Assembly (NCBI GenBank): GCA_040390065.1
Contig: JAZJZE010000009.1
Coordinates: 224,001-288,000, forward strand
DNA length: 64,000 bases
Reading direction: 5' to 3'
Source of the DNA: a bacterium
GTDB taxonomy: Archaea; Thermoplasmatota; E2; JACPAO01; JAHFTW01
The position numbers were made by a program, and so were the translations under genes. Below the pieces are notes generated by a model. The model made no database searches, was not told the origin of the DNA, and was given only the letters and a program-made list of their open reading frames with translations. Shown piece by piece: positions 17,149-50,207 of the stretch (its first letter is position 1; every line of letters begins with the position of its first letter).

Positions 17149-17389
17149 TTGAGGCCACCAATGGGCCGGGCTGACCGTCGCCTTGGCCCGCGCTGGAGCC
17201 ATGGCTTGGCGTGCATCCCGTATCCCGTTTCTCCGACCCTGACGGCCCCCTATAAGGGTACCGAGAACCCCTTCGTTTCCGTTGGAGGACCGTCAATGAC
17301 TATATGGTAGATTGTTATCTGATTGGATGCCGATTGTTGCTTCGACGAGAAATGGGGGTTCCCCGATGGGTTCATCGTTTCCCCCTTCC

Positions 17390-17484
17390 GCCCCCGGCGG
17401 CCCACGCGCGCGGCTTCGCGTCGCGCGCTTGCCACTCCCTCGCGCCGCCGGCTTCGCTTCGGCGGGCTCGCCCCGGCCGGGGGC
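17390..17484. repeat. Dispersed ~95-bp GC-rich hairpin repeat (REP/MITE-like), copy 1
   Basis: It begins gcccccggcggccc and ends gctcgccccggccgggggc. Related copies are at 41977-42067, 46127-46225 and 46826-46916. Confidence 0.75.
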
Positions 17485-17636
17485 CCTCCGCTTGGCCTCT
17501 TTCGATTGCGCCATGCAAGTCGCCGCCGTCGGAGGATTGACGAATCGTGCGGTGGACGTTGACCCGCAGGAATCCGGGCGGCGGCGCCTCGCCCCCGATT
17601 GGGGCCTGTCGATGTCCCCCTGAACCGTTCATCTAC

Positions 17637-40723: not shown

Positions 40724-41728
40724 ATGGACACCAAGACCCTCGAAGCCACCGCGCAGGCGCTGGTCGCCGGCACGAAGGGCATCCTCGCGGCCGACGAGTC
40801 GACGGCGACGATCGGCAAGCGCTTCCAGGCCATCGGCACCGAGTCGACGGAGTCGAGCCGCCGCGACTACCGCCACCTCCTCTTCACGACGCCGGGTGCG
40901 GGGGATTCGGTAAGCGGCGCCATCCTCTACGACGAGACGTTGCGGCAGAAGGCGTCGGACGGGACGCCCATTGTCAGCGTGCTGGCCAAGGCCGGCATCA
41001 TCCCCGGCATCAAGGTCGACACGGGCGCATACGACCTGCCCAACTTCCCGGGCGAGAAGATCACGGAAGGGCTCGACGGGCTGCGCGGGCGCCTAGCGGA
41101 GTACCACAAGATCGGGGCGCGCTTTACCAAGTGGCGCGCCGTCATCACGATTGGCGACGGCATCCCGACCGGGTACTGCATCAAGGCCAACGCGCAGGCC
41201 CTCGCACGCTACGCAGCCTTGGCGCAGGAAGCCGGACTGGTCCCCATCGTCGAGCCCGAAGTCCTCATGGACGCGGACAACACGGTCGAGCGCTGCGAAG
41301 AGGTGACGGCCGAAGCGTGGCGCGTCACGTTCAACGCCTTGCGCAAGGCCCGCGTGCACCTGCCCGGAATGCTCCTCAAGCCGAACATGGTGATTGCTGG
41401 CAAGAAGTGCCCGGTGCAGGCGCCTGCCCAAGTCGTGGCGGAGCGCACCGTCACGCTGCTGCGCGCCCATGTCCCCCCCGCCGTGCCGGGCATCGTCTTC
41501 CTGTCTGGTGGCCAGTCGCCCGAGCAGGCAACGGAACACCTGCGTCTCATGAACCGCCTTGGTCCGCACCCGTGGAAACTGTCGTTCAGCTACGGCCGCG
41601 CCCTGCAGGACCCGGCCTTGAAGGCGTGGGGCGGCAAGCCGGCAAACGTCAAAGCTGCGCAGGACGCGTTTGCCAAGGTCGCAAGGGCGAATGCGGCGGC
41701 GTGCGCGGGAAAGACCCTCGTGGCGTAG
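40724..41728 (+). CDS. fba: Class I fructose-bisphosphate aldolase (eukaryote/bacterial glycolytic type)
   Basis: KGILAADES, GIKVD, KWRAV, VPIVEPEV, LLKPNMV, FLSGGQS, SFSYGRALQ. Confidence 0.95.
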   Translation: MDTKTLEATAQALVAGTKGILAADESTATIGKRFQAIGTESTESSRRDYRHLLFTTPGAGDSVSGAILYDETLRQKASDGTPIVSVLAKAGIIPGIKVDTGAYDLPNFPGEKITEGLDGLRGRLAEYHKIGARFTKWRAVITIGDGIPTGYCIKANAQALARYAALAQEAGLVPIVEPEVLMDADNTVERCEEVTAEAWRVTFNALRKARVHLPGMLLKPNMVIAGKKCPVQAPAQVVAERTVTLLRAHVPPAVPGIVFLSGGQSPEQATEHLRLMNRLGPHPWKLSFSYGRALQDPALKAWGGKPANVKAAQDAFAKVARANAAACAGKTLVA

Positions 41729-41799
41729 GCCGCCGTCCTGCCTCGCAGACGTCGACCGGCCACGCCAGGCTCCGACCGCGGCGACGCGCACGAGGTGGC

Positions 41800-42141
41800 C
41801 GCGTGGCTGAGTGTGGGAAACCTGGGAGAACAGGAATCTCGTGAAGAGAACGGGAATGGGTTCCTGTTCTCCGTTCGTCTCCGGTTCTCCCAGGCCGCCC
41901 GTGCCTGAAAGGCCAGGAAACCGTGGAAAATGGGTGAAACGCGTTTCCGGTTTTCGGCGATTTCCTGAGCTTCCAGGCCCCCGGCGGCCCCAGCCATCGC
42001 TGCGCTCGGCTCGCCTCGCCCTCGCTCTGCGCGCTTCGCGGCGCATTCGCTCGCCCCGACCGGGGGCTGCTTCGTGTCCCTTCCATTCCTTCATGACGTC
42101 GCCGCCGTCGGAGGAACGCGGGAATGGTTCGTTGACCTGGA
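41800..42141 (+). repeat. Left arm of a 342-bp perfect inverted repeat (partner 46752-47093)
   Basis: cgcgtggctgagtgtgggaaacctgggag...gttgacctgga is the reverse complement of 46752-47093. The same shadow peptides appear at 41811(+) and 47082(-). It extends ~10 bp further inward with 2 mismatches. Confidence 0.97.
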
Positions 42142-42155
42142 CAAGCAGGTTTTCC

Positions 42156-43136
42156 CTACGGCTGGGGCGAGCTTGCCGCGACGAGGTCTGGCATCTTCGT
42201 CCGTCCGCACAGCCACGCGTACAGTGCGTCTTCGCGGTAGCCGAACGGCGAGAGAAGGGTCTCGACGTTGCGCGCGAGGAGCCGGACGTAGGCGTCGATG
42301 GAGTACGTCTCGCGCGGCGAGCCGAACCATGGCGATTGCTTGCCGAGGAGTTCCACGGGTTTGACCCGCGCATCCCAAGGGCCCGTCTGGCGCGACACGA
42401 CGTACTTGACGTATTCGCCGGGCTTGCGTTCGGTGCCGGCGTCGCGCAGGAGTCTGAGGGCCGCCTTGGTGCCCGTGTTGGCGCTGTAGTCCTCGACGCT
42501 CATGCGGGCTTGCAGCATGAGGCCCAGGTCCTCGGGGTCGACTTCGCGTCGGCGCAGGCGTCCGGCGGCCTCCTTCGCGACGGCAAGGGCGCGTGGGATG
42601 CGCAGCAGGAAACCTTTGGCGTCATCCGCTTCGGCAAAGACGTCCAGCATGCCCTGCTGCACGTCGTACAGAAACGGCGGCGTGCTGTGGCGTTGCACCT
42701 CGATGCCGCGCACTTTGAGGGTGCCGTCCTCGAACTTGCCGTAGTAGCGGTTGGGCACGCCGACTTCGCTTGAGGTGCTGTGGGTCTTCGACGGCAACAG
42801 GACGAGCCAGCGGTAGACGCCTTCCACGTCCATGGGGACGCCGACTTCCTTGGAGACGAGGTGCGACACGTGCACGGCGTCGGCGCGCGTGATGCCGGGC
42901 TTGTGCAGGAAGACGCAGTCCGTGAGCGCGTGCACCATCGTGTAGCCTTCGCGCTGCGCCACTTCGCGGGCGCGCGTCATGCCCGCTCGTCCCAAGCATT
43001 GGATGGCCTGGTGCACCTCGGCGCAGCCGAAGCGGGCGTTGCGGTAGCGGAAGTAGCCGAAGCAGACGACGCCGAGGGCTTTGTGCTCGGATTTGATCGC
43101 TTTGGCCTTGGCGACGAGGTTGGAGGCGCTCGTCAT
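42156..43136 (-). CDS. Family B DNA polymerase (PolB2 type), C-terminal part: second finger helix, palm motifs B/C, thumb
   Basis: KSEHKALGVVCFGYFRYRNARFGCAEVH (motif B), HALTDCVF (PolB2-type motif C), NRYYG, KVRGIEVQRHSTP. The ATG overlaps the RelE stop (ATGA). Confidence 0.9.
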   Translation of the reverse strand: MTSASNLVAKAKAIKSEHKALGVVCFGYFRYRNARFGCAEVHQAIQCLGRAGMTRAREVAQREGYTMVHALTDCVFLHKPGITRADAVHVSHLVSKEVGVPMDVEGVYRWLVLLPSKTHSTSSEVGVPNRYYGKFEDGTLKVRGIEVQRHSTPPFLYDVQQGMLDVFAEADDAKGFLLRIPRALAVAKEAAGRLRRREVDPEDLGLMLQARMSVEDYSANTGTKAALRLLRDAGTERKPGEYVKYVVSRQTGPWDARVKPVELLGKQSPWFGSPRETYSIDAYVRLLARNVETLLSPFGYREDALYAWLCGRTKMPDLVAASSPQP

Positions 43137-43390
43137 CGGTACACCATCGAGCGGTGGCCGAAACGGAAGAACACAATTTCGTTTTCCTGGACGGCGTACA
43201 TGCCGCGATAACGGCCGACATGGACGCGATATGCTCCTCCATGCATCTTCATGACGTCGAGGCCTGGTCGAGGACGAAACGGGTTTTCCTGGAGCATCGT
43301 GAAGGCCTTCTTGAAATGCCGCTGGACAGGGTCGGGCAGGTCATCCAACTCCAGGAGGGCCGACGGGGCGATCGTGACAACAAACGGCAT
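43133..43390 (-). CDS. RelE/ParE family toxin
   Basis: 85 aa; A.LELDDLP...F.KAF.ML.ENPF, DVMKM.G...YRVHVGRYR.MY, FRFGHRSMVYR. Confidence 0.85.
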   Translation of the reverse strand: MPFVVTIAPSALLELDDLPDPVQRHFKKAFTMLQENPFRPRPGLDVMKMHGGAYRVHVGRYRGMYAVQENEIVFFRFGHRSMVYR

Positions 43391-43391
43391 C

Positions 43392-43616
43392 CTATACGAA
43401 CTTCCCTTTCTTGCTGTCCCACGTCAAGCGCGGGCGTTCCTTCATGCGGCGGTCCATCTCCTTCCAGAACGCCTCCGTCGGGGTCTCGTCCATGAATGCG
43501 TTGAGCACGTCGTCGTACGTCTTGCCACCTACTTTGTACGACCTGAGGCGCCGGAGGGTCTCAGGCTTGACGGGGACGGAAGTGAAAGTGGTCGTGCGCA
43601 GGGGGGCCTTGGCCAT
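43392..43616 (-). CDS. Putative antitoxin (archaeal RHH/DUF7557-like)
   Basis: TSVPVKPETLRRLRSYKVGGKTYDDVLN, directly upstream of the RelE toxin. Confidence 0.8.
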   Translation of the reverse strand: MAKAPLRTTTFTSVPVKPETLRRLRSYKVGGKTYDDVLNAFMDETPTEAFWKEMDRRMKERPRLTWDSKKGKFV

Positions 43617-43649
43617 GACAATCATTACAGTCATGACAATCATGAACGT
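43614..43649. repeat. Four 9-bp tandem units upstream of the TA operon (possible operator)
   Basis: catgacaat cattacagt catgacaat catgaacgt. Confidence 0.7.
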
Positions 43650-43737
43650 TGCGGCAGCGGATTCATTTCACTGTCCCGGCCCAAACCATTGTCTACGCCA
43701 AGTCCATCGCATGCTGCCGCCCAGGCGGAAGTGAACC

Positions 43738-44154
43738 ATGGCCACCCAGACCAAGCAGACCCAGAAGCCCGCAGCCTCAATGACCTCGCGCAAGGTGCGT
43801 CCCGGTTTCATCTCGCACACCGAGCTCGCCAGCAAGGACCCTGCCGCCACGAAGGCGTGGTGCCAGAACGTCCTCGGGTGGCAGTTCGGCGCCCCCGTCG
43901 CGACTCCCAACGGCGACTACCACATGTGGCAGTTCGACGAGGCCAACGGCGGCGGCATCCGCAACACCAACGCGGGCGAACCCGGCGGCACCGTCCCCTA
44001 CGCCGAGGTCACCGACATCAAGGCCGCCTACGCCAAGGCCAAGAAGGCTGGCGCCACCGAGATGATGCCGCCCAGCGAAGTGCCCGGCGGCGGCTGGATC
44101 GCCATCGTGCAAGCCCCGGGTTCCGTCCCGATCGGGTTCTGGGCGCCGAAGTGA
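43738..44154 (+). CDS. VOC/glyoxalase family protein
   Basis: GFISHTELASKDPAATKAW...LGWQF, GGGI, YAEVTDI, GWIAIVQAPG...GFW. Confidence 0.9.
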   Translation: MATQTKQTQKPAASMTSRKVRPGFISHTELASKDPAATKAWCQNVLGWQFGAPVATPNGDYHMWQFDEANGGGIRNTNAGEPGGTVPYAEVTDIKAAYAKAKKAGATEMMPPSEVPGGGWIAIVQAPGSVPIGFWAPK

Positions 44155-44158
44155 AGCG

Positions 44159-44542
44159 CTAGCGCACGAACCACGCCGCAACCGATTCCGCGGCGAAGAG
44201 GGCGATGCCGATGCCGGTCCCGATGGCGGAGCCGTTTGGGCCCGTCGACAGGCTTTGCCACAGCGCGATGAGTGTGGCGGCCATGATGCCAGAGGCAAGA
44301 GACGCAATGCCCAGGCCCACGGCCGTATCGGCCCCCACTCGCCACGCGCCGTAGAGCATCACGGCGCCGCAGCCGACGGGCAAGAACCCGATGGCCAGCA
44401 GTCGGGCAAGGCGGGCATCGAAGCCGCCGCGTTCGCCGAAAGCAACCATCGTCACGGCGATCCAGTGGCCGACGCCCGAGAGGAGGGCCACGGCACCGAG
44501 GAGGAAAGCGGCAGTCGTTGCAATCCCCTGTGGGGTTGCCAC
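44159..44542 (-). CDS. Small 4-TM membrane protein
   Basis: Four hydrophobic segments. It fills the space between polB2-N and the VOC gene. Confidence 0.6.
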   Translation of the reverse strand: MATPQGIATTAAFLLGAVALLSGVGHWIAVTMVAFGERGGFDARLARLLAIGFLPVGCGAVMLYGAWRVGADTAVGLGIASLASGIMAATLIALWQSLSTGPNGSAIGTGIGIALFAAESVAAWFVR

Positions 44543-44576
44543 GCCGTGGCATCGGGCAAGCGGACTTGGAGTTTCG

Positions 44577-45941
44577 CTATCCCGGGGCCTTCGCCTTCTT
44601 GAGCACGGCCTTCGCCCAGCGCCGGTGGCCCCACAAGCGACGCAGGATCTCTGACTGGTGTCCCTGCTCCTTGCAGACGTGGTAGCCGAGTTCCGGGATG
44701 ACTTCGCCGTCGGGGCAGCACGTGCAATTCAGGGTATCGGACGAGAGGTTGTGGCGCACGACCAGGCTCGGGTAGTAGCCTGAGAAATCGCATGCCGCGA
44801 CGTCCTCGTACAGGCCGGGTTCCGGCACCATGATCTGGCCGCCGCGGTCGACGGCGCAGAGTGTGGCTGCGTCCTTCCAGTCTTCGGCCAGGTTGCGTTT
44901 CCACGGCAAGGCGACACCGCGGTCGGTGGCGAGGTCGATCTGCATCTGCTGCAGGGCGAAGCCGGCGCCGTTACGGTTGACATCCTGGGCTCTGCGGTTG
45001 GCCACACGTGCGAGGTACACGATGCCATGCAGGTCCTTGCGGTCGTCTTCGGAGTCGAGCGTCTTCTTGGCGAGGTCGATGTGCCAGCGGCCGCGCAAGT
45101 AGAAGGCGTGCGTCTTGAACAGCCAGCGGCCGTACGTGTGGATGCTCTTGCTGGCCTGGTCGGGCTTGTCGGGCAACGGGTCGGCGTCACGGCCCAGGCG
45201 CACCTCACCCTCGATGCCCAGGGCCTTGATGCGGCTGAGGAGGAACGGAATGTCGAAGCGGTCGCCATGGCGCGTCACGATGACATCAGGGTCCAGAAGC
45301 GCAAGGGACGATGCAAAGGCGCGAAGCGTGTCGCGCTCTGCGGCTGCATCGCCAGGCGCCGCGCACGGCAGGACCTCGTCGCCGAGGCGGATGGACTCGA
45401 GCGGGTCCGTGAAGGCGGGCACGTAGCCGTCCTTGCGCGCGGTGACCTCGAGGCGTACAGTGCGCAGGTCGGGATCGGGGTATTCGACGGTCCAGCGGTC
45501 TTCCCCCGGTGCCGGGCGCAGTTCGATGCCCGAGGCCGAGGTTGCAAGGCGGCACATGGACCACAATCCCTGCGCATGCATCCAGCGCGACTCCTGGCCG
45601 TGGTCGACGTCGAAGAACAGGAAGCCCTTCGTGTGCGTGCGGCGCCGCAGGTCCGTCGCGATGGCCCACGTATCCTGCAGGCGCTTGGGTCGCACGCGAA
45701 GCACCTCGGTCTCGGGTCCGCGCAGCCACAGCCGTTGCCGGGACCTCCAAGTCTTGTCGACGCGGCCGTCCTGCGCTAGCAGTTTTTCCGCAAGCGACAG
45801 CGGCTGTGTCTCGGCCTTGACGCAGAAATCCGGGAAGTAGGGCACGAGCCGCTTCGTGACGGCATCGCCGTGCTTGACCCAGACGACGAGGCAGGACTTG
45901 CGCGGATGGGGGTAGACGTCGAAGAGCCAGGCGTCATCCAT
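44577..45941 (-). CDS. Family B DNA polymerase (PolB2 type), N-terminal part: N-domain, degenerate exonuclease, motif A, first finger helix
   Basis: WLFDVYP, DPDVIVTRHGDRFDIPFL, LRGRWHID, DRGGQIMVPEPGLYEDV, DFSGYYPS (motif A), HNLSSDTLNCTCC. It ends ...HRRWAKAVLKKAKAPG*. Confidence 0.9.
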   Translation of the reverse strand: MDDAWLFDVYPHPRKSCLVVWVKHGDAVTKRLVPYFPDFCVKAETQPLSLAEKLLAQDGRVDKTWRSRQRLWLRGPETEVLRVRPKRLQDTWAIATDLRRRTHTKGFLFFDVDHGQESRWMHAQGLWSMCRLATSASGIELRPAPGEDRWTVEYPDPDLRTVRLEVTARKDGYVPAFTDPLESIRLGDEVLPCAAPGDAAAERDTLRAFASSLALLDPDVIVTRHGDRFDIPFLLSRIKALGIEGEVRLGRDADPLPDKPDQASKSIHTYGRWLFKTHAFYLRGRWHIDLAKKTLDSEDDRKDLHGIVYLARVANRRAQDVNRNGAGFALQQMQIDLATDRGVALPWKRNLAEDWKDAATLCAVDRGGQIMVPEPGLYEDVAACDFSGYYPSLVVRHNLSSDTLNCTCCPDGEVIPELGYHVCKEQGHQSEILRRLWGHRRWAKAVLKKAKAPG

Positions 45942-45963
45942 GCCGACGCACCCCTGGACGAAC

Positions 45964-45997
45964 CACTGAACGCACTGAACGCACTGAAATCACTGAA
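45964..45997. repeat. Four CACTGAA boxes at exact 9-bp spacing upstream of polB2-N
   Basis: cactgaa at 45964, 45973, 45982 and 45991. Confidence 0.8.
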
Positions 45998-46126
45998 CCC
46001 CGCAACCCGTCTGCGAAGCCCTGCTTCGCCAAGTCCTCGAAAGGTCCTCAGGTTGCGACGACGGCTTCCTCCACGCGGACCTCAAGATGGGCCTGGAAAA
46101 CCAGGAAATCGAAGAAAACAAGGAAG

Positions 46127-46225
46127 GCCGCCGGTCGGGGCGAGCACGCCGTCGGCGCAGCCGCGGCGAGGCGAGGGCGTGGCAAGCGCGCGATGCGGAG
46201 CAAGCGCGCGAGGGCCGCCGGCGGC
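46127..46225. repeat. Dispersed hairpin repeat, copy 3
   Basis: gccgccggtcggggcgagc...gtggcaagcgcgcga...gggccgccggcggc aligns with the reverse complement of 17390-17484. Confidence 0.75.
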
Positions 46226-46245
46226 AGCGGAAAGCCACAGCAGCT

Positions 46246-46614
46246 TCACGCTTCCACGAGGACCGTCTGCCCGATGCGGCCCAACTCGTAGGCATCGGGT
46301 GCCTTGACGCGGCTCTCGACGAGGCCTGCGCCACGCAGCGCGGTCAGCGCCGCTTCGAGGTCGCGCCGCAGAAGGGCGAGTTCGCGGTTCTGGCCGTCCA
46401 CCATCCGCATGCCCTCCAGTAGCATGGCCAGCATGACGGGGCGTTCGAAGTCGAGGTGCGGGCGCCGGTTGATGGCGTTGGAGTGGCGGCGGGCGCGGCA
46501 GACGAGTTCGTCGAACCACTCCTGCTCGCGCGGGTGCAGTTCGGCGCGAAACTGGGCGTAGCGAGAAAGGAAGATGTCCAGCGCGATTGTCGTGGTCGGG
46601 GTGGATTGTCCCAT
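46246..46614 (-). CDS. Small alpha-helical PolB2-associated protein (arCOG07300-like)
   Basis: MGQSTPT...YAQFRAELHPREQEWFDELVCRARRHSNAI...VMLAMLLE plus a coiled-coil tail. It lies upstream of polB2. Confidence 0.82.
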   Translation of the reverse strand: MGQSTPTTTIALDIFLSRYAQFRAELHPREQEWFDELVCRARRHSNAINRRPHLDFERPVMLAMLLEGMRMVDGQNRELALLRRDLEAALTALRGAGLVESRVKAPDAYELGRIGQTVLVEA

Positions 46615-46751
46615 GGGATTCGCTTGTAGTGGGCACAGGTTCTTCTGTTGCTTTATGGGGTGAGTGAAAACGGCACGGCGAAATAACTGGGTGAAGCGAA
46701 CGTACCATCTGACGGGCCACGGACTGCATCGATTGCACGACAACCTGCATC

Positions 46752-47093
46752 TCCAGGTCAACGAACCATTCCCGCGTTCCTCCGACGGCGGCGACGTCAT
46801 GAAGGAATGGAAGGGACACGAAGCAGCCCCCGGTCGGGGCGAGCGAATGCGCCGCGAAGCGCGCAGAGCGAGGGCGAGGCGAGCCGAGCGCAGCGATGGC
46901 TGGGGCCGCCGGGGGCCTGGAAGCTCAGGAAATCGCCGAAAACCGGAAACGCGTTTCACCCATTTTCCACGGTTTCCTGGCCTTTCAGGCACGGGCGGCC
47001 TGGGAGAACCGGAGACGAACGGAGAACAGGAACCCATTCCCGTTCTCTTCACGAGATTCCTGTTCTCCCAGGTTTCCCACACTCAGCCACGCG
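46752..47093 (-). repeat. Right arm of the 342-bp perfect inverted repeat
   Basis: tccaggtcaacgaaccattcc...ggtttcccacactcagccacgcg is the reverse complement of 41800-42141. Confidence 0.97.
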
Positions 47094-47128
47094 AACCTAC
47101 TTGCCGAAAAGGGCGGCCACGCCGCCAG

Positions 47129-47854
47129 TCATCCGAGTTTGGCCTGCTGCGGCTTCTTGGCACTGGCCTCACCCCAAACCTTGGCTCCGCCTTGCGGTTT
47201 CACGGCCTCGGGATCCCCGCGCCGCTTCCACACGTCCTCGGCGATGGGCACCATCTCGTACGCGTCGTTGGCCGCCGGAACGAGGAGGTTCTGCAAGGCC
47301 TCCTTCCCCGTTGCCGCCGGATCCATCCAAGCGTCTTGCCGGACCCGCGAATCCAATTCCACCACGAAGCGGTCGTGGACCTGCGCCACGAAGTCGTTGG
47401 CCGGCGCCGTCACTTGCACGTGGCCGAGGTCGTCGTACTCGTTGCCCGTACTGGTGAAGGCGTAGTGACGGCGGGCCATGAGGGCTGCAACGACCATCAG
47501 CTTGCCATCGCGGCGTTGGATGCGGAAGGCGGCCTTGGTCTTCGCGTCGCGCTCGACGACGTAGGAGATTGCGGCGAGCGCGTGGTGCTCCGGCTTGCCG
47601 AAGAGACCGCGCCACGCCGGGGATACGAGGTTGTCTCCTCGCGCATTCGTCAGCAGGCGTGGGCCGACCGGCATCCCGAGGCGCACCTTGTCCACGACGC
47701 GCTCGCCACCCTCGAGGCGGGCCACCGGCAGGAAGTCGGCGTGGTGCACGAGCGGCCGCGCGATGCGGTCGCCGGCGTCGTAGACGTAGCGCGTGCCGCC
47801 GAGGGCGTCGATGACCTCCATCGAGCTTGCATCGATGCCTTCGAGTCCGGCCAT
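47129..47854 (-). CDS. SOS response-associated peptidase (SRAP/HMCES) family protein, divergent paralogue 2
   Basis: LTNARGDNL...AWRGLF, ALAAISYVVE, VTAPANDFVAQVHDRFVVEL...WMDP. The N-terminus is MAGLEGI. Confidence 0.8.
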   Translation of the reverse strand: MAGLEGIDASSMEVIDALGGTRYVYDAGDRIARPLVHHADFLPVARLEGGERVVDKVRLGMPVGPRLLTNARGDNLVSPAWRGLFGKPEHHALAAISYVVERDAKTKAAFRIQRRDGKLMVVAALMARRHYAFTSTGNEYDDLGHVQVTAPANDFVAQVHDRFVVELDSRVRQDAWMDPAATGKEALQNLLVPAANDAYEMVPIAEDVWKRRGDPEAVKPQGGAKVWGEASAKKPQQAKLG

Positions 47855-47862
47855 GCCACATC

Positions 47863-48576
47863 TCAGAACCAGGTTGCCGGCTTCTTCGCCGCCGCCTTGC
47901 GGGGTGTTGCGCCGTAGCGCATCGCTTCGCCGATCGGAACCAAGTCGGCGTCCTCGCGGATGCCTGGCTTGAAGATGCGGTCGTCCACGGGGACGGCTTC
48001 CCATTCGTCCTCCGCCGGATGGTGCAGGATCGCCGCGGCCTCCTTCTTTTCCGTCGCGGCCATCCATGCGTCGGCCTCCTTGGGCGACAGCGTGCAGACC
48101 TGGCGGTCGTGGAACTGGCCGAAGAACTTGTTCGGCGCCGTCGTCACGATGGCGCAGCACAACCTGCCTTCGCCCTCGTCCATCTTGCGGGGTGCGCAGA
48201 GGCCCGGCATGACGATTGGTCGGCCGTCGATGCGGCGGAACCACAGGCTCGTCTTCTTGCCGTCGATGGTGGCTTGCTCGTAGATGCCCGTGGCGGCAAC
48301 CAGGCACGGTGACTTTGCGAGCATCGAACCCCACATCGGGCTCTCCAGCAAGCGGTCGTCCCGAGCGTTGCCGACGGGCCGGCCGCCGCCGACGGGGAAG
48401 CCCCAGCGCGCACGCACGGCCACACGTTCCCGGTCCTTGTTGACGGCGATGGGCAGGGTCGTCGTGAGGCGGACGACGGGGTGCGGAACCCAGTCGCCCT
48501 CGTAGTCCCACTTGGAGACGCGCAGGGCGTCCTGGATGTCGATGTCGGCGGCTTGCAGTCCGATGAGGCCGGCCAC
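47863..48576 (-). CDS. SRAP/HMCES family protein, paralogue 1
   Basis: ARWGFP, NARDDRL.ESPMW, CLVAATGIYE, CAIVTTAPN...FHDRQVCTL...AW. The GTG start MAGLIGL is inferred by alignment with paralogue 2. Confidence 0.88.
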   Translation of the reverse strand: MAGLIGLQAADIDIQDALRVSKWDYEGDWVPHPVVRLTTTLPIAVNKDRERVAVRARWGFPVGGGRPVGNARDDRLLESPMWGSMLAKSPCLVAATGIYEQATIDGKKTSLWFRRIDGRPIVMPGLCAPRKMDEGEGRLCCAIVTTAPNKFFGQFHDRQVCTLSPKEADAWMAATEKKEAAAILHHPAEDEWEAVPVDDRIFKPGIREDADLVPIGEAMRYGATPRKAAAKKPATWF

Positions 48577-48602
48577 GGCGTGCGACACGGTGGCGCGGCT
48601 GT

Positions 48603-50207
48603 CTACTTTGCGGCCTTGCGCAGGAGCGGCCGTTCCACGCCGATTGCGTAGGTCTTGTAGCGACCTTGGAAACGCACGGCGATGATGCCCTCGTTCTGCA
48701 AACGGGCCAAGCGGTGCTGCGTCGTGCTGCGCGACCAGCCGCACGTCTCCATGGCGTTGAGGACATCCTTCTGCGGGGCGCCCGGGTGGGCCTCGATCCA
48801 GGAGCGCAGGTTCGCCAACTCAGGATCGCGCAGCACGGCGGTATGGCGCCACGTTTCGGTGTAGCGGCCGTGGTTCTCGAAGAAACGCATGCGCGAATGG
48901 TGTTGGTACTCGATGACGAGCCCGGCGCGCTTCAGGACGTTGAGGTGGTGCCGCGTCGTGCCCGTCGGGATGCGTACACTTCGGCAGACCTCGCGGAAGC
49001 TGGCACCGGGGTGCTCGCAGATGAAGGCGTGCAGGCTGGCGCGGCGCGGATGGGCAAGCGGGTCCTGCGGCGCGGTGAGAAGCGGCGCCAGGAAACGCAA
49101 CAGGACCAGGAGCGCCGCAAGGCCGAGGACGGCCTCACCAGTGACCGCGATGCCGGACACGAGGGTCGCCGGTGCCGGGCTTTCGTCGAGTCGCGCGTCC
49201 TGAAGCTCACCGCCGAATCCGGCAGCCGCCGAACGAGGGCCGGTCGAATGCAGCCCGCCCAGGATGACGTGGCCCGAGGCAAGCAGCGTCTGGTTGTGGG
49301 GCCCATCGCACTGCGCGCAAGAGGACGCCGAGGCAAGGGGCAGACGGACCCAGCCATCGACCTCGACATCGAAGGCCGGCCCGCCGGCCAGCGCGAAGTC
49401 GAGGGCCCCTTGCGCAGTGAGGTTGCCGCCATTCGTCCGGAACTCCTGGTGCGACAGATGGTCGACCGTCACCTCGCTGCCTGCAAGGGAGGGCGCAGCG
49501 ATGCGGGTGCGGCCGCCCGGCGGCGGGCATGGTCTTTGGGTGCACTCGGTGGACGCGTTGAACCATTCGAGTTGCCGCACGCCGGTGGCGTTGAGGGTGA
49601 ACATTTCGCCACGCCCGTTTGCCCAGACGAGGTACGTTTCGTTGTCCGGGACGTCCGGAACGCGCACCGCCAAAGGCTCGTCGATGACGGTTGGCAGGAG
49701 CGGACCGATGCCTTCGTTGGAGTTGGCGATGGCGGCCCGTCCCGTGGTCCTGAAGTCGATGCGGTCGGCCACGAGGACGAGGGAGGAGGAACCAGGGCGG
49801 CGGAAGTCGAGGGACAGGTCGTTCCATGGCGCCGGATCTTGGCGCGGTGCGTCCTGGCCTGGCCCCATCCAGCCGCCTCCCAGTGTGCCGTTGCGCATCG
49901 CTCGGACGTTCTGCATGGTGTGGTTGACGAGGGTGCCCCCGCCGAGGTTCTCGGCCCGAAGTGTGACGGCATCCGGACCGTCGGCCATGAACCAGAGGAT
50001 CAGTCGCGTCACGGCGGTCGCGTTCTCGTGCCCCCCGGCGGCGGCAGGGATCGCAAACGAGACTCTGGGCTGGTCCGCGTCCGTTGCGACGGCGGTGGGG
50101 GGGAGCACGGCGGCAAGGACGATGGCGATGCTGGCCGCGACCTGCAACCGCAACCGTAGGCGTGGGGCTGCGTGGCCGGAGTTGGAAGCGAATCTGTTGG
50201 TCTGCAT
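48603..50207 (-). CDS. Membrane-anchored regulator: extracellular domain, TM helix, tandem C-terminal winged HTH
   Basis: N-terminal signal/TM segment, TM GLAALLVLLRFL, PLAHPRRASL...HPGASFRE...TRHHLNVL, second HTH HPGAPQKD...STTQHRLARL. Confidence 0.8.
   Translation of the reverse strand: MQTNRFASNSGHAAPRLRLRLQVAASIAIVLAAVLPPTAVATDADQPRVSFAIPAAAGGHENATAVTRLILWFMADGPDAVTLRAENLGGGTLVNHTMQNVRAMRNGTLGGGWMGPGQDAPRQDPAPWNDLSLDFRRPGSSSLVLVADRIDFRTTGRAAIANSNEGIGPLLPTVIDEPLAVRVPDVPDNETYLVWANGRGEMFTLNATGVRQLEWFNASTECTQRPCPPPGGRTRIAAPSLAGSEVTVDHLSHQEFRTNGGNLTAQGALDFALAGGPAFDVEVDGWVRLPLASASSCAQCDGPHNQTLLASGHVILGGLHSTGPRSAAAGFGGELQDARLDESPAPATLVSGIAVTGEAVLGLAALLVLLRFLAPLLTAPQDPLAHPRRASLHAFICEHPGASFREVCRSVRIPTGTTRHHLNVLKRAGLVIEYQHHSRMRFFENHGRYTETWRHTAVLRDPELANLRSWIEAHPGAPQKDVLNAMETCGWSRSTTQHRLARLQNEGIIAVRFQGRYKTYAIGVERPLLRKAAK

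Follow-up and report, generated by a model that had tools for sequence, protein, structure and literature searches.

A PolB2 operon with a split polymerase gene between inverted copies of a dispersed hairpin repeat in an uncultured Thermoplasmata archaeon

Homologous recombination between inverted copies of dispersed repeats, such as insertion sequences (IS), repetitive extragenic palindromes and the interspersed mosaics built from them (REP/BIME), or MITEs (miniature transposable elements with inverted repeats), inverts segments of prokaryotic chromosomes. The mosaic palindromic REP/BIME repeats of bacteria and the MITEs are present as many intergenic copies of hairpin modules. Long inverted repeats also bound the casposons and polintons, which encode an integrase of their own (Cas1 or rve), generate target-site duplications, and occupy variable insertion sites. 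All of these bear on a locus in a 64,000-nt stretch of DNA, hereafter the window, from an uncultured archaeon of the Thermoplasmata (GenBank assembly GCA_040390065.1, contig JAZJZE010000009.1, here C9, positions 224,001 to 288,000 of the forward strand), in which perfect inverted repeats of 342 nt, the arms, enclose an operon for the family B DNA polymerase PolB2.

Casposons and polintons have been described as self-synthesising transposons that carry a family B polymerase (PMC4104785). The archaeal PolB2 (Dpo2) belongs to a mutasome operon with PPB2 (arCOG07300) and iRadA (PMC4104785, PMC11791011). In PolB2 the first Asp of motif C (DxD) is replaced, PPB2 is a small helical partner protein with a conserved N-terminal arm, 'MGRT', and genes for SOS-response-associated peptidases (SRAP) have been reported to adjoin polB2 (PMC11791011). 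Family B polymerases can also be split at the tip of the fingers, which corresponds to T471-D473 of Pfu polymerase: gp43 of T4-like phages is bicistronic, with cistrons 2 bp to 3 kb apart, and an engineered split Pfu polymerase, in whose clone stop and start codons overlap as ATGA, is fully active (PMC3061061).

The PolB2 operon of the window is probably a chromosomal one that lay between a pair of dispersed-repeat copies in inverted orientation, host recombination having homogenised these copies and flipped the operon between them. The starting unit would have been an ordinary damage-tolerance operon, consisting of a PPB2-like gene and a PolB2 gene split at the finger tip with cargo between its halves, that lay between two inverted repeat copies. 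Gene conversion by the host homologous recombination system would have homogenised 342 nt of the two copies, and reciprocal exchange would have flipped the 4.6 kb between them, leaving the 3' end of PolB2 away from the SRAP genes; the unit would have no moving or copying machinery of its own. The more interesting residue of the analysis is not the arms, and lies in the lineage-wide splitting of PolB2 with cargo between the halves, including, at this locus, a toxin-coupled C-terminal half.

The inverted arms and their repeat family

The outer structure reported in an initial annotation of the window, which had proposed a new polymerase-carrying mobile or invertible element, was reproduced. Sequence comparison confirmed that 41800-42141 is the exact reverse complement of 46752-47093 along all 342 nt, and the segment between them contains, as had been listed, a split polB2, a toxin-antitoxin pair, a VOC gene, a membrane gene, and a 122-aa arCOG07300-like gene (ParE, VOC and PolB by Pfam). 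Likewise, searches of Pfam, NCBIfam and PADLOC assigned none of the 8 inner open reading frames (ORFs) to a family of integrases, transposases, recombinases or Cas1, and a target-site duplication is excluded because the 15-nt outer flanks of the two arms share no k-mer of at least 4 nt. Similarity between the arms extends inward to 42154 and 46739, giving 355 nt at 99% identity with 3 mismatches, all within the innermost 13 nt. The arm pair is the longest near-identical repeat of the 2.68-Mb, 50-contig assembly, and the window is free of N, the sole N-run of C9 lying ~27 kb past it. The repeat features of the locus, as identified in part with profile hidden Markov models (HMMs), are:

41749..41799, plus strand: upstream module M0 of the left repeat copy, outside the identity tract (HMM match, E 5.4e-10)
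41800..42154, plus strand: left arm, modules M1-M4 of the dispersed hairpin-mosaic repeat, with 41800-42141 identical to the right arm
45962..45999, minus strand: tandem TTCAGTG-type short repeats, just upstream of the start of the PolB2 N-terminal half (read from the sequence)
46019..46240, minus strand: third, partial family copy (M3-M4-like) inside the cassette (nhmmer E 7e-19, HMM positions 179-374)
46739..47093, minus strand: right arm, modules M1-M4, no M0, with 46752-47093 identical to the left arm

A blastn search of the genome with the arm returned 58 high-scoring segment pairs, and iterated nhmmer searches returned 105 matches, corresponding to 61 non-overlapping loci in the metagenome-assembled genome (MAG; completeness 89%), of which 47 do not overlap a coding sequence, as crudely called. 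The initial annotation had named a high-copy genomic repeat as the finding that would speak against its proposal, and the arm is such a repeat; yet the two arms form the single outlier pair of the family, far closer to each other than any other pair, with the remaining copies at most 81% identical over at least 300 nt and at most 86% over 79-101 nt (blastn). All other family copies are old. They are modular (M0-M4), individual modules are also found alone, and the arm folds as a chain of long hairpins on either strand (z -3.2 and -3.7), the module stems being paired in 94-97% of cells across family copies. Among the 41 genomes searched, the family was found in the source genome, in the congener G004 (16 matches, mainly modules 3-4), and once, weakly, in G012. 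An Rfam scan of 41000-48000 at E up to 1 returned only a chance-level snoRNA match and none on the arms.

The arm repeat is a previously undescribed hairpin mosaic. With REP/BIME repeats and MITEs it shares dozens of intergenic copies and hairpin modules in varying combinations; it differs from them in its archaeal host, and in that no consistent terminal inverted repeats or flanking duplications were seen, although a fuzzy search for duplications at the copy ends was too noisy to carry weight. A further difference is that no RAYT-like Y1 transposase was found, with no match to Pfam Y1_Tnp (RAYT/Y1, IS200-type) in the 89%-complete assembly. The genome encodes TBP, and sigma-70 gave no match above the family cut-off, as befits an archaeon. 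With no other young copies, the family appears inactive.

The arms look like two separate, older copies of this family and not like the termini of an element. They are not element ends because, beyond the identity tract, the left copy runs on as M0 for another 51 nt (matched by an HMM of 7 other copies) and the inner ends keep their own family terminus: both retain a family-like GCAGGTT, with differences at 3 of 13 positions compared with 0 of the 342 before them. The outer flank of the right arm gave no match to the same M0 HMM even at E 100. If three differences were evenly spread, the chance of all of them falling in the terminal 13 nt would be (13/355)^3, or ~5e-5 by hand calculation. Because the differences cluster at the inner ends, each copy with its own family-like terminus, homogenisation is favoured over fresh duplication; a conversion tract within two older copies would leave such a pattern, whereas a fresh duplicate would be expected to be identical to its end. 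The initial annotation had attributed the identity to recent duplication or to homogenisation, and the second fits better: conversion, rather than one-step duplication, would have made the arms identical. Its further suggestion, a composite of two copies of a recently mobile 342-bp unit, is borne out insofar as the cassette does lie between two repeat copies.

The joint presence of long terminal inverted repeats, a toxin-antitoxin pair and a family B polymerase would suit a non-autonomous transposon with PolB2 as its cargo, or a self-synthesising element of the casposon or polinton type, with the toxin-antitoxin pair as stabiliser. What the locus shares with casposons and polintons is a family B polymerase gene bounded by long inverted repeats. 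Unlike them, however, it has no Cas1 or integrase among its 8 inner ORFs and no target duplication, and its repeats are not specific to an element, the arms being members of a family of 61 loci and the left copy overrunning the supposed terminus. Furthermore, the polymerase carries the LTD motif of the translesion, repair-type PolB2 clade instead of a replicative polymerase motif. Its gene is found as one copy per genome (the N-terminal half is present once in the source genome), and relatives that have no arms keep it at a conserved locus linked to SRAP. Searches of viral contigs, which find close relatives only, returned no relative of the N-terminal half, and plasmids matched only in haloarchaeal PolB genes at <30% identity. 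A mobile element of this kind is extremely improbable here, and the proposal of a new mobile or self-synthesising element is not supported. A false lead is thereby removed: a family B polymerase enclosed by long, perfect inverted repeats is not, in this case, a new self-replicating mobile element.

The third copy, at 46019-46240, lies between the PPB2-like gene and PolB2, and G004 likewise has a partial copy upstream of its PolB2 N-terminal half. A further partial copy (modules 3-4) is found elsewhere in the window, at 17348-17573 (C9:241348-241573). TTCAGTG-type arrays also directly precede several family copies, including those at C9:217.8, 418.2 and 102.7 kb. With copies of ~270 nt that are 95-99.6% identical, two further families of dispersed repeats look younger than the arm family; one has copies at C9:24859-25136, C1:365067, C4:72750 and C11:172047, and the other at C9:36522, C9:213170, C9:559124, C19:10143 and C48:9009.

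Gene order in relatives and the orientation of the segment

The genes of the cassette and its flanks are, by position in the window:

40739..41728, plus strand: class I fructose-bisphosphate aldolase gene (fba), left unique flank (Pfam Glycolytic, E 7e-127)
42156..43136, minus strand: PolB2 C-terminal half, 326 aa, with second finger helix, motif B, motif C (LTD) and thumb (Pfam DNA_pol_B; NCBIfam type-B polymerase models)
43133..43390, minus strand: ParE-family toxin gene (Pfam ParE_toxin, E 1.1e-9)
43392..43643, minus strand: antitoxin-like gene, 83 aa, two bases upstream of ParE; no curated family, homologues between the PolB2 halves in G004, G002 and G003
43738..44154, plus strand: VOC/glyoxalase-family gene, cargo, opposite strand to the polymerase (Pfam Glyoxalase, E 1.3e-5)
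44159..44542, minus strand: gene for a small hydrophobic (membrane) protein, 127 aa, cargo; no family, GC at third codon positions (GC3) 0.81, hydrophobic by eye
44577..45941, minus strand: PolB2 N-terminal half, 454 aa, with N-terminal and exonuclease-like domains, motif A and first finger helix, ending at the finger tip (Pfam DNA_pol_B_exo1)
46246..46614, minus strand: PPB2 (arCOG07300)-like small protein gene, 122 aa, first of the operon (frame from codon-position GC)
46615..46751, minus strand: the operon's own upstream region, within the flipped segment; includes TTTCACTCACCCC, homology with relatives to 46704
47129..47893, minus strand: SRAP-a, a SRAP paralogue, 3' end toward the right arm (Pfam SRAP, E 3.6e-14)
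47863..48744, minus strand: SRAP-b, second SRAP paralogue (Pfam SRAP, E 7.1e-28)

Relatives of the PolB2 N-terminal half are present in 24 of 40 related genomes, or 25 of 41 when the source is included (same family 17/24, two sister families 4/4 and 2/2). The 3' end of PolB2 is convergent with the 3' end of a SRAP gene in 10 of 17 relatives' loci, separated in G004 by ~12 nt from the SRAP-a orthologue; the other seven comprise two long loci without SRAP (G012 and G002) and five that end too early to tell. In the source genome the orthologues of SRAP-a and SRAP-b are instead found at the opposite end of the operon, where they lie upstream of the PPB2-like gene and point the same way. The homology with relatives ends next to each arm: at 42183, by the left arm, for the 3' end of the PolB2 C-terminal half, and at 47174, by the right arm, for the 3' end of SRAP-a. 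Because the PolB2/SRAP junction is broken exactly at the arms, the 4.6-kb inter-arm segment is in inverted orientation compared with the conserved order. In G004, one family copy follows fba at the end of the contig and a second, M3-M4 copy lies upstream of the PPB2-like gene, which are the positions of the two arms; in five relatives fba is found on other contigs. The comparison with related genomes for an empty site, suggested in the initial annotation, gave a different picture: the operon itself is widespread, SRAP-linked across the order, and devoid of inverted repeats of at least 60 nt in 6 of 6 relatives' loci (19-20 kb each).

These features are shared with known repeat-mediated inversions, in which inverted multi-copy repeats bound a segment that is reoriented relative to relatives, the arms are homogenised, and no element-encoded machinery is involved. 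The difference is that the repeat here is an undescribed hairpin mosaic, found mainly in this genome and one congener of the 41 genomes. The locus would provide a clean example of how an archaeal chromosome is reshaped, at a site of DNA-repair genes, by dispersed non-coding repeats, and the flipping may be ongoing.

A second way to reach the same order is a one-step duplicative inversion, in which an M1-M4 unit between fba and the PPB2-like gene was copied, inverted, into the short PolB2/SRAP-a spacer, and the segment inverted in the same event, either through intramolecular replicative transposition in trans or through template switching at a stalled fork. On reasoning, the predicted order A-E-rc(S)-rc(E)-B matches all four assembled junctions; consistent with it, the arms are the only near-identical pair of the family and the right arm begins exactly at the M0/M1 boundary. 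The fresh copy, however, should be identical to its very end, where the last 13 family-like nt differ at 3, and an inverted target duplication is not evident. Moreover, a Y1/IS200-type transposase was not found in the 89%-complete assembly, the apparently inactive family has no other young copies, and in G004 one copy follows fba while a separate one precedes the PPB2-like gene. We consider a one-step event unlikely.

Support at the level of reads comes from Logan k-mer contigs of one run, probably the source sample; two sister runs contain next to none of the stretch. Depths are even across the left flank (12.2), the inner segment (12.9) and the right flank (14.7), which argues against an excised or amplified form. 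The contigs break 30 nt inside every arm end (41829, 42112-46781, 47064), and no contig bridges an arm. One arm piece, of 105 nt, is at 22x (~2x the surrounding depth), and another is at 11.1x. Two arm copies and all four junction ends are supported by these data. Two exact 50-nt junction scans of metagenome contigs each gave 0 matches. Joints on 'opposite strands' in the Logan contigs were examined as well; they link the arms to the inner partial family copy and were read as repeat cross-matches.

The same contigs allow for an ambiguity at the level of the assembly, in which both arm copies are real and the inner orientation, perhaps also the perfect identity, was set by the assembler, the true order being the ancestral PolB2-to-SRAP one with a family copy inserted between. 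The breaks inside every arm end, the arm piece at 11.1x, and a sample depth of only ~12x are all consistent with this account; when the segment is flipped back, the second copy becomes a simple insertion in a ~42-nt spacer between two stop codons. On the other side, the MAG contig crosses both arms without N, for which assemblers would normally need paired-end or long-read support, the depths are uniform, the two arms have their terminal 30 nt in common in the k-mer graph, and the 105-nt arm piece is at ~2x. We think an assembly artefact improbable, and the assembled orientation would then be the true one, or the only one.

The initial annotation had also raised an invertible switch that flips the mutator operon. 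Its inversion relative to relatives stands; in a programmed switch, a recombinase encoded elsewhere would flip the operon and change its expression relative to the SRAP genes. As assembled, SRAP-b, SRAP-a, the PPB2-like gene and the PolB2 N-terminal half are co-directional, so that read-through could couple them, and perfect arms suggest repeated exchange. However, no recombinase was found in the 8 inner ORFs or in 20 flanking ORFs, whose contents are housekeeping or regulatory (28 ORFs in total, 28-63 kb of the window), the arms are generic repeats of 342 nt and not short recombinase sites, and the arrangement is seen in no relative, inverted repeats being absent from all six loci examined. 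In addition, the segment includes the conserved upstream region of the operon, which travels with it, and this makes a promoter-flipping switch unlikely. Overall we regard programmed inversion as very unlikely.

Several observations weigh against inversion by host recombination between two old copies, which nonetheless is the explanation that we favour. SRAP is absent beside PolB2 in the long loci of G012 and G002, and the region is much rearranged among congeners: the PolB2-SRAP block of G004 adjoins homologues of C9:417-437 kb, and that of G006 is near a tRNA-synthetase/RNB gene cluster. The arm piece at 11.1x corresponds to ~1x where 2x would be expected, and the k-mer contigs do not confirm full-length identity of the arms. 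Nor do they confirm the assembled orientation, because they break at the arms and identical arms let both orientations fit one graph. The start of the right arm at a module boundary fits a one-step duplication of an M1-M4 unit too. Finally, a first exchange between old copies would have been inefficient, because other family copies are only 68-86% alike.

The split PolB2 and its cargo

The C-terminal half of the polymerase aligns to residues 488-755 of KOD polymerase, with LTD opposite the catalytic DTD, a replacement in motif C that is typical of PolB2 (PMC11791011); the predicted product is a PolB2-type translesion enzyme. The 122-aa gene has 20 homologues in relatives' loci, of which 20 start with MGQS(T/A/V); it is upstream of and co-directional with PolB2, and in most loci its immediate neighbour. 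Its putative product resembles PPB2, the N-terminal MGQS being similar, not identical, to MGRT. An assignment to DUF8156 is a lead from a protein atlas only and is unconfirmed. The operon is like the known PolB2 mutasome operon in the replaced first Asp of motif C, in the small protein gene with an MGxS/T arm directly upstream, and in the SRAP genes next door. It differs in MGQS in place of MGRT, in a polymerase gene split with cargo, and in the absence of iRadA: Pfam Rad51 matches are found only at C1:194 kb and C4:47 kb, with none on C9, although a very degenerate iRadA could escape the profile. PADLOC 'homing endonuclease' matches on both PolB halves were dismissed as polymerase, the alignments covering polymerase parts of a 1671-position profile.

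The break in PolB2 falls at the finger-tip loop between the two finger helices, leaving both parts as intact ORFs, as far as can be read from alignment. The last residues of the N-terminal half are opposite residues 473-474 of Pfu/Deep Vent-type polymerases, and the C-terminal half is aligned from KOD-type residue 488; whole, unsplit relatives have a 6-9-residue loop at the break point. The gene is broken at this loop in 7 of the 17 sequences that have both parts, and the halves are then 354-2471 bp apart. Public protein data are consistent with separate C-terminal halves elsewhere, as 44 of the 60 best stand-alone matches of C-half length begin at most 35 residues from the second finger helix; many of these are on short contigs. 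The gene tree mixes split and whole forms: the split G012 is sister to the whole G011, and the split G004 lies within a clade that holds two whole G010 copies (support 100/99 in both cases). Because split and whole forms interleave on the tree, the split state must have changed several times. Pairwise dN/dS (the ratio of nonsynonymous to synonymous divergence) is 0.14-0.29 for the PolB2 halves (N-terminal half 0.14-0.29, C-terminal half 0.16-0.29), and alike for split-split, split-whole and whole-whole pairs; both halves are, on these ratios, under purifying selection.

The cargo between the halves varies. The source genome has the membrane gene, the VOC gene, the antitoxin-like gene and ParE; in G004 the antitoxin-like gene and ParE are accompanied by a 571-aa ORF; in G002 the antitoxin-like gene is alone, and in G003 it is joined by a ParE remnant. 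A membrane protein of ~240 aa is found in G015, G018 and G021, and other ORFs in G012. In the source genome the TGA stop codon of ParE overlaps the ATG start codon of the PolB2 C-terminal half (ATGA), and dN/dS of the antitoxin-like gene is 0.20-0.36.

The same loop is broken in gp43 and in split Pfu polymerase, and an ATGA overlap likewise precedes the C-terminal half; the halves are here 0.35-2.5 kb apart. In contrast to those polymerases, the enzyme would be a cellular translesion PolB2 and not a replicative polymerase, the C-terminal half is coupled to the ParE gene and not to the N-terminal half, and the cargo varies. No report of a split PolB2 was found in the literature; the supplementary operon tables of PMC4104785 and PMC11791011, which might list split genes, were outside coverage. 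The word 'split' is absent from PMC11791011, and PMC4104785, in the 12 of its 15 occurrences that were covered, applies it to PolB3 genes and never to PolB2. The sequences are evidence that PolB2, the archaeal mutator polymerase, occurs widely in a naturally split form, broken at a loop known to tolerate splitting in phage and engineered polymerases.

A bolder suggestion is that, in this Thermoplasmata lineage, the finger-tip loop is a recurrent landing site for toxin-antitoxin genes and other cargo, yielding a natural two-piece mutator polymerase. At this locus its catalytic C-terminal half would be produced from the ParE message, assembly of the error-prone enzyme would be gated by toxin-antitoxin (stress) regulation, and the arms would flip the operon between convergent and co-directional with the SRAP abasic-site genes. 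As a whole this is quite unlikely. Apart from it, the different genes lodged between the halves in different genomes offer a natural system for studying how a two-piece translesion polymerase assembles and whether toxin-antitoxin linkage regulates it.

Some minor observations concern the surroundings of the operon. Most relatives have two to four tandem SRAP paralogues beside PolB2 (for instance L024:14190-16905, the G004 locus, and loci L030, L037 and L040), and a third SRAP paralogue of the source genome is 145 kb off, at C9:417086-417754, beside another family copy. Upstream of the SRAP genes of the window, a 534-aa ORF (48603-50207) has a winged-helix DNA-binding domain at residues 388-451 only, the rest being without a family. 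A TTTCACTC(A/C)CCCC-like motif is found upstream of the operon at 46657-46669 and at aligned places in G004, G006 and G012, ~45-55 nt before the start of the PPB2-like gene, and may be a control element of the operon; TTTCACTCACCCC was seen once in the window, which is at chance level, and the motif by itself is not significant there.

Between the source genome and G004, synonymous divergence (dS) is 0.35 in the antitoxin-like gene (43392-43643 versus L024:12713-12961), compared with 1.16-1.38 in the PolB2 halves on either side of it; ParE, next to it, is only 53% identical, with dS saturated. The low dS could possibly reflect a later exchange of the small gene, or codon constraint. G004 has a second toxin-antitoxin-like pair between its PPB2-like gene and its PolB2 N-terminal half (L024:7011-7708), consisting of a 90-aa ORF that is AbrB/MazE-like and a 134-aa ORF that is PIN-like, both by eye, and followed by a 409-aa membrane ORF. 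The PolB2 operon seems to collect such cassettes.

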